Counted from the stretch's first letter, positions 3,030 to 3,147 are shown. The stretch: 5,629 nt of DNA from a virus (IMGVR_UViG_2660238352_000003), one strand, 5' to 3'. Program-made: numbers and translations. Notes: generated from the letters alone by a model not told the origin.

Positions 3030-3045
3030 ATGAGCCTATCTTTTT

Positions 3046-3098
3046 ATGTAGGATAACCAACATAAACTCTTGACACTCACATGTTGGATATCCTACAT
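3046..3098. promoter_or_regulatory. OL-like operator pair (3046-3063 and 3081-3098)
   Basis: 3081-3098 ATGTTGGATATCCTACAT is the exact reverse complement of OR site a (2267-2284). 3046-3063 ATGTAGGATAACCAACAT differs from site a at one position. Confidence 0.55.
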
Positions 3099-3099
3099 T
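3070..3099 (+). promoter_or_regulatory. PL-like sigma70 promoter driving the yfdP-yfdQ-yfdR early operon
   Basis: -35 TTGACA (3070-3075), 18-nt spacer, -10 TACATT (3094-3099), with the 18-bp operator embedded. Hexamers, spacing and operator placement are the same as in the PR-like promoter, in mirror orientation. Confidence 0.5.
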
Positions 3100-3147
3100 T
3101 GTTTTTAGAGTTGTGGTGAATGCGCAGGCTGATGCGCGAAAGACATT

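Follow-up and report, generated by a model that had tools for sequence, protein, structure and literature searches.

A putative repressor-controlled OL/PL region with a predicted structured first transcript in the immunity region of a lambdoid Escherichia coli prophage

In the window, the 5,629-bp stretch of viral DNA analysed here (IMGVR_UViG_2660238352_000003), a promoter-like segment with an embedded pseudo-palindrome is found at positions 3040-3105, raising the questions of which protein reads these sites and what is transcribed from the promoter. The original prediction described this segment as a PL-like mirror copy of PR and proposed that a single repressor controls both divergent early operons through a duplicated promoter-operator cassette. 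Our analysis suggests, with a probability of roughly 0.88, that the OL/PL control region of a lambdoid E. coli prophage lies at 3040-3105, with the prophage repressor binding at both OL and OR. The design follows the known logic of lambda and P22; the immunity type itself is uncharacterised, and our literature search returned no description of it.

Gene context and operators of the immunity region

In the window, which is a lambdoid prophage immunity region from E. coli, cro, PR/OR/PRM, cI, a terminator, OL/PL and the early-left genes follow one another in the lambda arrangement (Table 1). The cI product combines an N-terminal HTH with a C-terminal LexA/S24 domain (Pfam HTH_3, 1e-15; Peptidase_S24, 4e-25), and against the PDB it matches full-length lambda cI (3bdn, 7e-25) and the N-terminal domain of P22 C2 (1adr/3jxb, ~5e-14). 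Its VQAG, GDSM and LKK motifs align with the Ala111-Gly112 cleavage site, Ser149 and Lys192 of lambda cI, and since these lambda-type Ala-Gly, Ser and Lys autocleavage motifs are kept, SOS induction should clear both early promoters together. The cro gene is divergent from cI, with a multipartite operator between the two that overlaps PR, and a second operator set downstream of cI overlaps PL, which reads away from cI. The terminator of the cI transcript contains a perfect 10-nt inverted repeat (3004-3013/3017-3026), and a hairpin with a T-run is found at the same place in relatives; an Rfam match to Termite-leu over 2989-3071 (minus strand, E 0.31) corresponds to this terminator and was dismissed. 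A PRM proposed by the promoter scan (2306 TTGGCA ... CATGAT 2334) was rejected, as it is not conserved in relatives. Further in-frame cI ATGs occur at 2333 and 2339, and, like that of lambda, the cI mRNA made from PRM may lack a leader, with cI starting at 2330, 2333 or 2339.

The operator pattern ATGTAGGATATCCTACAT was searched with up to three mismatches over the whole 5,629-bp window, with 200 dinucleotide shuffles as the control. It matched at three places only, corresponding to OR1, OL2 and OL1, while the shuffles contained zero matches. OL1 proved to be the exact reverse complement of OR1 over 18/18 positions, as had been claimed, and OL2, which had been put forward as a second site with one mismatch upstream of the -35, was recovered by the same search and differs from OR1 at a single position. 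When all 18-mers were ranked with a half-site weight matrix, the two OL and three OR sites outranked all others (scores in Table 1), although OR2 by itself does not rise above shuffle noise (shuffle maxima with a mean of 9.2 and a 95th percentile of 13.2 bits). No third OL site was found with the matrix over 2985-3130, in which the next best 18-mer scored -1.4.

A sigma-70-like promoter scan of the whole window gave two top matches (10/12 each), one at 3070-3099 on the plus strand and the other at 2295-2266 on the minus strand, namely PL and PR. The promoter-like matches total 7, with no excess over shuffles, so that PL and PR stand out by score and context rather than by number. Both read TTGACA, an 18-nt spacer and TACATT, confirming that these hexamers flank the operator at PL just as at PR. 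Indeed, the relation of OR1 to PR is identical to that of OL1 to PL: OL1 sits in the spacer, spanning about -26 to -9, and its TACAT is also the first 5 nt of the -10. The conserved asymmetry of OL1 and OR1 follows from this double demand on a single sequence, because the promoter-proximal half must read CCTACAT(T) and doubles as the -10. For sigma-70, an 18-nt spacer with a 4/6 -10 is suboptimal. From the hexamer geometry, PL transcription is predicted to start at 3106-3108 (~3107); the expected PR start is ~2258 on the minus strand.

The description of PL as a mirror copy of PR, in hexamers, spacer and embedded operator, was confirmed in every detail. Aligned with PL, the reverse complement of PR is identical at TCTTGACA and CATGTTGGATATCCTACATTT, but only 2/5 bases agree between these two blocks, and the flanks diverge. 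Thus, the same operator in the same promoter is present at both places, while ancestry of a "duplicated cassette" by duplication is not demonstrated by an identity limited to functional blocks, and the shared blocks can equally reflect shared constraint. The two sets also differ in geometry, in agreement with the original prediction: the OL centres (3054.5 and 3089.5) are 35 bp apart, whereas the OR triplet has spacings of 22 and 25 bp. OL2 ends 6 bp upstream of the PL -35, and OR1 and OL1 are separated by 814 bp.

Based on these features, we propose the following mechanism. In a lysogen, repressor dimers would bind the 18-bp pseudo-palindromic operators; a dimer on OL1, which reaches from the spacer into the -10 by five bases, would exclude RNA polymerase from PL, and one on OR1 would likewise block PR on the other strand. 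OL2 may serve cooperative occupancy, block upstream (alpha-CTD) contacts, or hold a second dimer for an OL-OR loop of ~0.8 kb, its role being uncertain because the 35-bp OL2-OL1 spacing (~3.3 helical turns) is unlike the adjacent-site geometry of lambda. RecA-stimulated cleavage of the repressor in the SOS response would derepress PL and PR together, after which Cro would bind the same operators. Derepressed PL would start at ~3107 and first produce a 193-nt structured RNA ending at an intrinsic terminator, and read-through past this terminator would reach yfdP, yfdQ and yfdR and presumably genes beyond.

Table 1. Coordinates of features in the window and of related RNA stretches in other loci
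Feature	Position	Strand	Basis or remark
Rha-family (Phage_pRha) regulator gene	286-831	-	C4 antisense RNA and isrK directly upstream
C4 antisense RNA	886-973	-	Rfam, 78.8 bits
isrK	998-1074	-	Rfam, 58.7 bits
CII/YmfL-like protein	1431-2015	-	
cro, 65 aa	2037-2234	-	Pfam P22_Cro, 8e-22; PDB P22 Cro 1rzs, 7e-12; WP_001231956.1
PR	2266-2295	-	-35 TTGACA 2295-2290; 18-nt spacer; -10 TACATT 2271-2266
OR1 (site a), ATGTAGGATATCCAACAT	2267-2284		Within PR spacer and -10; pattern, weight matrix (27.8 bits), relatives
OR2 (site b), single strong half-site	2289-2306		10.6 bits (right half 14.2); overlaps PR -35; position kept in relatives
OR3 (site c), TGGTAGGATTGCCTACAT	2314-2331		19.6 bits; last bases overlap annotated cI ATG
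cI-type prophage repressor, 217 aa from annotated ATG	2330-2983	+	HTH_3 and Peptidase_S24; 'LexA family protein' WP_000981537.1
Intrinsic terminator of cI transcript, AAAACCGGGG tat CCCCGGTTTT, then T run	3004-3031	+	Inverted repeat
OL2, 18-bp operator, ATGTAGGATAACCAACAT	3046-3063		Pattern, 25.8 bits; about -61 to -44 from predicted start
PL -35, TTGACA	3070-3075	+	Promoter scan; TTGAC(A/C/G) in relatives
OL1, 18-bp operator, ATGTTGGATATCCTACAT	3081-3098		Pattern, PR/PL alignment, 27.8 bits; reverse complement of OR1
PL -10, TACATT, 18-nt spacer	3094-3099	+	Promoter scan
sRNA-17 homologue, 193 nt	3110-3302	+	Primer match at both ends, fold, inverted repeats
Scaffold copy, window	3110-3244		Within sRNA-17 homologue
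Long hairpin, yfdP 5' leader	3304-3392	+	25-nt arms, 84% complementary
yfdP	3441-3803	+	Early-left gene
yfdQ/DUF2303	3869-4693	+	Early-left gene
yfdR/HD 5'-deoxynucleotidase	4822-5358	+	Early-left gene
IS66-family transposase, C-terminal fragment	5428-5613	-	DDE_Tnp_IS66_C, 2e-17; ~70 bp past yfdR stop
Scaffold copy, L007	3001-3136		
Scaffold copy, L090	1501-1636		
Scaffold copy, L091	1501-1596		
Scaffold copy, L092	1516-1623		
Scaffold copies, L093-L172			
Leader RNA of relative L010	~2240-2360		
Leader RNA of relative L004	3262-3345		
Leader RNA of relative L003	3290-3400		
Leader RNA of relative L006	2230-2500		

The predicted first product of PL and a wider scaffold RNA family

The sequence suggests that the first transcript of PL is a structured RNA with an intrinsic terminator rather than a protein gene. 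This RNA is homologous to sRNA-17 of E. coli K1 RS218, a 193-nt species that Northern blots and 5'/3' RACE mapped in an mEp460-like prophage (PMC7719688). The two ends of the window RNA correspond to the primers published for the full-length molecule, namely CGTTGTGGTGAATGCGCAGGCTGATGCGCGAAA and the reverse complement of GTACACTTGCTTCCGGCTGGTACCGCTCTTTT (PMC7719688 Table S2); primers and supplementary alignment together match 3110-3141 and 3271-3302, and the RNA lies upstream of yfdP. Its predicted fold (-75.9 kcal/mol, z -2.8) has a closing stem (3110-3119/3235-3244) and ends in an intrinsic terminator formed by a 10-bp hairpin (3258-3267/3287-3296) and a U tract, which places a strong terminator ~195 nt past the PL start and ahead of the early-left genes. 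The segment 3250-3445 also folds stably (-87.1 kcal/mol, z -6.5), and a search of 3040-3440 against Rfam (E <= 1) returned nothing. The Pas sRNAs described in a preprint were set aside as late-region sRNAs.

In RS218, the RNA was ascribed to a promoter of its own under ArcA control, and it was seen in cultures that had not been induced (PMC7719688). There, ~270 nt of another leader, treated as the ArcA-bound promoter, precede sRNA-17, whereas in the window the RNA is joined directly to PL. The window homologue would thus be under direct prophage-repressor control, not only under ArcA control of the RS218 type, which would alter the reading of this RNA's expression and tie it to a much wider scaffold family (see below). 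The junction itself coincides with a mosaic joint at ~3107-3110, at the PL start. Here the immunity module, which ~140 E. coli genomes carry at 99% identity, stops, and from 3110 on the sequence is common to phages of other immunity types and ~3,000 E. coli genomes. Sharing begins at 3110-3111 for mEp460 and Stx2a phages and at ~3236 for cdtI. In E. coli MS14385 and JNEC-KY172 (L333 and L335), the sRNA-17 body is replaced from ~3211 by unrelated sequence carrying a small minus-strand ORF, leaving a truncated scaffold behind an intact OL/PL.

The sRNA-17 body is a widespread element, composed in order of a closing stem, a 5' block, an insert, a 3' block and the 3' stem strand. The 5' block GAAUGCGCAGGCUGAUGCGC and the 3' block AAGCCGGAGAUCAGCACCGGyC are invariant, and the insert of ~25-160 nt is unrelated in sequence between copies. 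The scaffold occurs in 115 phage records, including virulent Klebsiella, E. coli and Salmonella siphoviruses, Ackermannviridae and P1-like phage-plasmids, and it was also sought in viral contigs, where the number obtained is a lower bound. Most copies lie in unannotated stretches adjoining tRNA genes or hammerhead ribozymes, in the same orientation as these, and temperate as well as virulent phages carry the scaffold in their tRNA arrays. The family was not detected by Rfam 15, and a literature search with the scaffold sequence returned no matches.

Covariation was examined in 49 different scaffolds. Each of the seven inner closing-stem pairs is paired in 96-100%, by as many as five pair types, and double-change cells number 105, compared to 33.7 in shuffles. 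On this strand there are 12 G-U pairs but 3 A-C pairs, an excess that indicates pairing at the RNA level. Both predicted hairpins and the 6-nt loop complementarity GCUGAU/AUCAGC never vary among the 49 scaffolds and thus show no covariation; a search for variants with altered hairpin-1 stems produced chance matches only. The scaffold runs from a 7-bp stem through a 3-nt linker to a 4-bp stem capped by an 8-nt loop; the insert follows, and then a 5-bp stem whose loop is 9 nt long and which abuts the 3' strand. Its proportions appear to be those of a tRNA in which the anticodon domain is replaced by the insert. The insert of ZCEC13 resembles a small-subunit rRNA fragment (Rfam E 8e-8, below the gathering score). 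When E. coli rRNA was sought via this insert, only prophage copies were obtained, and since no rRNA was retrieved, the idea of an rRNA mimic rests on one sub-threshold Rfam match. The scaffold might act as a carrier processed by RNase P or imitate fragments of host RNA. A tentative extension is that OL/PL serves primarily as a switch, released by the SOS response, for a tRNA-shaped scaffold RNA belonging to an unrecognised, widespread class of phage RNAs; we consider this conceivable but doubtful.

A related alternative is that PL serves chiefly as the repressor-controlled promoter of a stand-alone sRNA-17 homologue (3110-3302), with most transcripts stopping at the 3258-3303 terminator and with yfdPQR and the genes downstream needing something other than simple read-through from PL, in which case calling PL an early-left operon promoter would overstate its role. 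The predicted PL start lies 3 nt ahead of the RNA, a GC-rich 10-bp hairpin and a U tract close it, and in the related prophage it is a discrete 193-nt species by RACE and Northern blot (PMC7719688); moreover, tRNA arrays of unrelated phages carry the same scaffold as a self-standing module, and neither an N gene nor a put RNA was found in the window. However, the promoter scan detected no other promoter-like site on the plus strand ahead of yfdP, the gene order fits lambdoid early-left operons, and relatives have put-like or other leader RNAs at the same place before their early genes. We therefore consider this alternative possible but on balance improbable, and it is in any case compatible with a repressor-controlled OL/PL region and does not exclude it.

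Conservation of the layout and the probable reader of the sites

To place the OL/PL region in a comparative context, 35 loci with cI proteins 45-90% identical to that of the window were compared, comprising Enterobacterales prophages, mEp390, YeP1 and a Klebsiella phage, the prophages being gathered with a cI alignment against one-genome-per-species contigs. In 34 of the 35, the OL layout is kept: the terminator is followed by an 18-bp site, a gap, TTGAC(A/C/G), a spacer holding a second 18-bp site, and TACATT (TACCTT in two loci). Among these 34 loci, the gap between OL2 and the -35 is 6-7 bp (4 bp in one), the spacer is 17 or 18 nt, and the distance between OL centres is 35 bp in 28, 34 bp in 5 and 33 bp in 1. 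The layout is the same in the phages mEp390, YeP1 and the Klebsiella phage, whose repressors are 60%, 64% and 51% identical, respectively, to that of the window. The OR triplet is conserved as well as OL, with OR3 nearly invariant across the repressor family even where other operators change. The two-site OL at fixed spacing is therefore a conserved design in a whole clade of P22-C2-like repressors and not a peculiarity of 933W. More tentatively, a fixed 33-35-bp two-site OL flanking the -35 might define a repressor geometry distinct from the adjacent-site cooperativity of lambda.

The half-sites differ by clade, being GTAGG/GTTGG in the window's clade, GTAAG in that of mEp390, GTCAG in YeP1 and GGTAAC...GGTACAT in that of the Klebsiella phage, and in every clade the OL sites match the OR sites of the same element. 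The predicted recognition helix shifts in parallel with the half-sites, from NRVTVTGWE to SRVSVTKWE. Furthermore, four variants of the same region in E. coli were aligned, and they differ at 3045 (flank), at 3053 (one change, within OL2) and at 3077-3079, spacer bases outside OL1 that vary in every variant examined; no difference falls within the -35, OL1 or the -10. Selection on repressor binding would leave this combination of covariation, positional conservation and polymorphism, and neither chance nor neutral duplication would give rise to it; the family-wide layout together with operator-repressor covariation is, in our view, strong comparative evidence of function. The claim that one repressor controls both early promoters is accordingly the best reading of gene context, the 34/35 layout, operator-repressor covariation and the polymorphism pattern.

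We consider it highly improbable that the main reader of the sites is a different regulator of the region (Cro by itself, or the YmfL/CII-like protein) and not the cI-type repressor. A P22-family cro gene adjoins OR, and Cro shares operators with cI in known lambdoid phages; but the 18-bp length and ATAT centre are the format of P22 C2, whose HTH is homologous to that of the window cI, the operator changes track cI clades, and the use of the sites by Cro as well, which is expected, leaves cI in place. Least probable of all is that the likeness of PL and PR is a mere trace of recent duplication or gene conversion, with OL1 and OL2 not both functional: although OL1 equals OR1 at 18/18 positions, down to a shared asymmetric A-to-T deviation in the promoter-distal half, only the -35 and the operator plus -10 are identical and the intervening bases differ, the two-site layout persists in relatives in which OL1 and OR1 share just 14-17/18 positions and half-sites have changed in concert with the repressor, and polymorphism avoids the sites.

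The OL/PL segment is present in 140/5,426 complete E. coli genomes (~2.6%), and a 1.5-kb core is 99% identical in Lys8385Vzw, Stx2c_EH0430/EH0474/JNE082796, vB_EcoM-720R4 and SKA5. Our analysis assigns operators, promoters and a repressor to the immunity type of these genomes and of several Stx2c-converting and other temperate phages, which helps predict superinfection immunity and SOS-dependent induction in such strains.

Comparison with known systems and further features of the window

Like lambda, the window has repressor sites over the core promoter at both early promoters, with near-identical O1 sites at PL and PR, a tripartite OR between divergent cI and cro, and a homologous S24 autocleavage domain in the repressor, in addition to the gene order described above. 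It differs in operator length (18 bp, P22-like, instead of 17 bp), in the number of OL sites (two, none of them over the PL -35, instead of three) and in OL-OR separation (~0.8 kb instead of ~2.3 kb). Also unlike lambda, the PL leader comprises a structured sRNA and a terminator, without an N gene or nut site within the window; no protein-coding ORF was found between PL and yfdP, and yfdP is without a Pfam match and not arginine-rich.

The operator consensus of P22 C2, ATTTAAGATATCTTAAAT (PMC5175364), agrees with that of the window at 14/18 positions; the two are equally long and both centred on ATAT. The window thus combines an 18-bp dyad with a 4-bp A/T centre and a C2-homologous HTH; the two repressors are ~45% identical over the whole protein, and Cro likewise belongs to the P22_Cro family. 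Relative to the P22 operator, each half-site carries two specificity changes: G replaces T at position 3 and A at position 6, and the symmetric partners are changed accordingly. P22 has six operators, three each in OL and OR, whereas the window has five, and the immunity type is different.

By site number, the window resembles 933W, for which three OR and two OL sites, the 'absence of an OL3 site' and five natural sites have been described (PMC3317979): in both, OL3 is missing and the operators total five. The operators of 933W are 15 bp long, however, a length that the 18-bp operators of the window do not share, and its repressor reportedly lacks cooperative binding to adjacent sites (PMC3317979). 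In tblastn comparisons, Stx-phage cI proteins are ~34-36% identical to the window repressor over the full length and ~44% over the C-terminal domain alone.

The N-less lambdoid phage HK022 carries a structured antiterminator RNA, putL, just after PL (PMC9378689), and in both HK022 and the window the PL transcript opens with a structured RNA. When the HK022 immunity region was compared with the window leader (3106-3440) by blastn, putL and putR gave chance matches only, and put-mediated antitermination is therefore not supported for this phage. Among the relatives, L010 (cI 84% identical) has a clear homologue of HK022 putL directly after PL, and a conserved leader, CAACAGCGAACAGGCAGGACGCC...GGATGATTCGC, is common to many relative loci and to SfV, SfII, ST64B and ZF40. 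A third leader type follows PL in mEp390, mEp460 and cdtI. These post-PL leader RNAs of relatives may be put-like antiterminators (coordinates in Table 1).

Elsewhere in the window, the C4 antisense RNA, isrK and the Rha-family gene look like a P1/P7 immI-like or Gifsy-type isrK/antirepressor module within the PR operon. A 382-aa ORF (286-1434) covers the C4 and isrK RNAs, and its equivalent in Lys8385Vzw, a 1146-nt CDS, is labelled 'peptidase'; this ORF is probably not a real gene. The IS66 fragment beyond yfdR indicates that, in this copy, an insertion sequence breaks up the early-left region. With Rfam, STnc100, a prophage sRNA, was matched only weakly and below threshold (4685-4865, plus strand; 23.4 bits, E 0.05); the match spans the end of yfdQ, the yfdQ-yfdR spacer and the start of yfdR.
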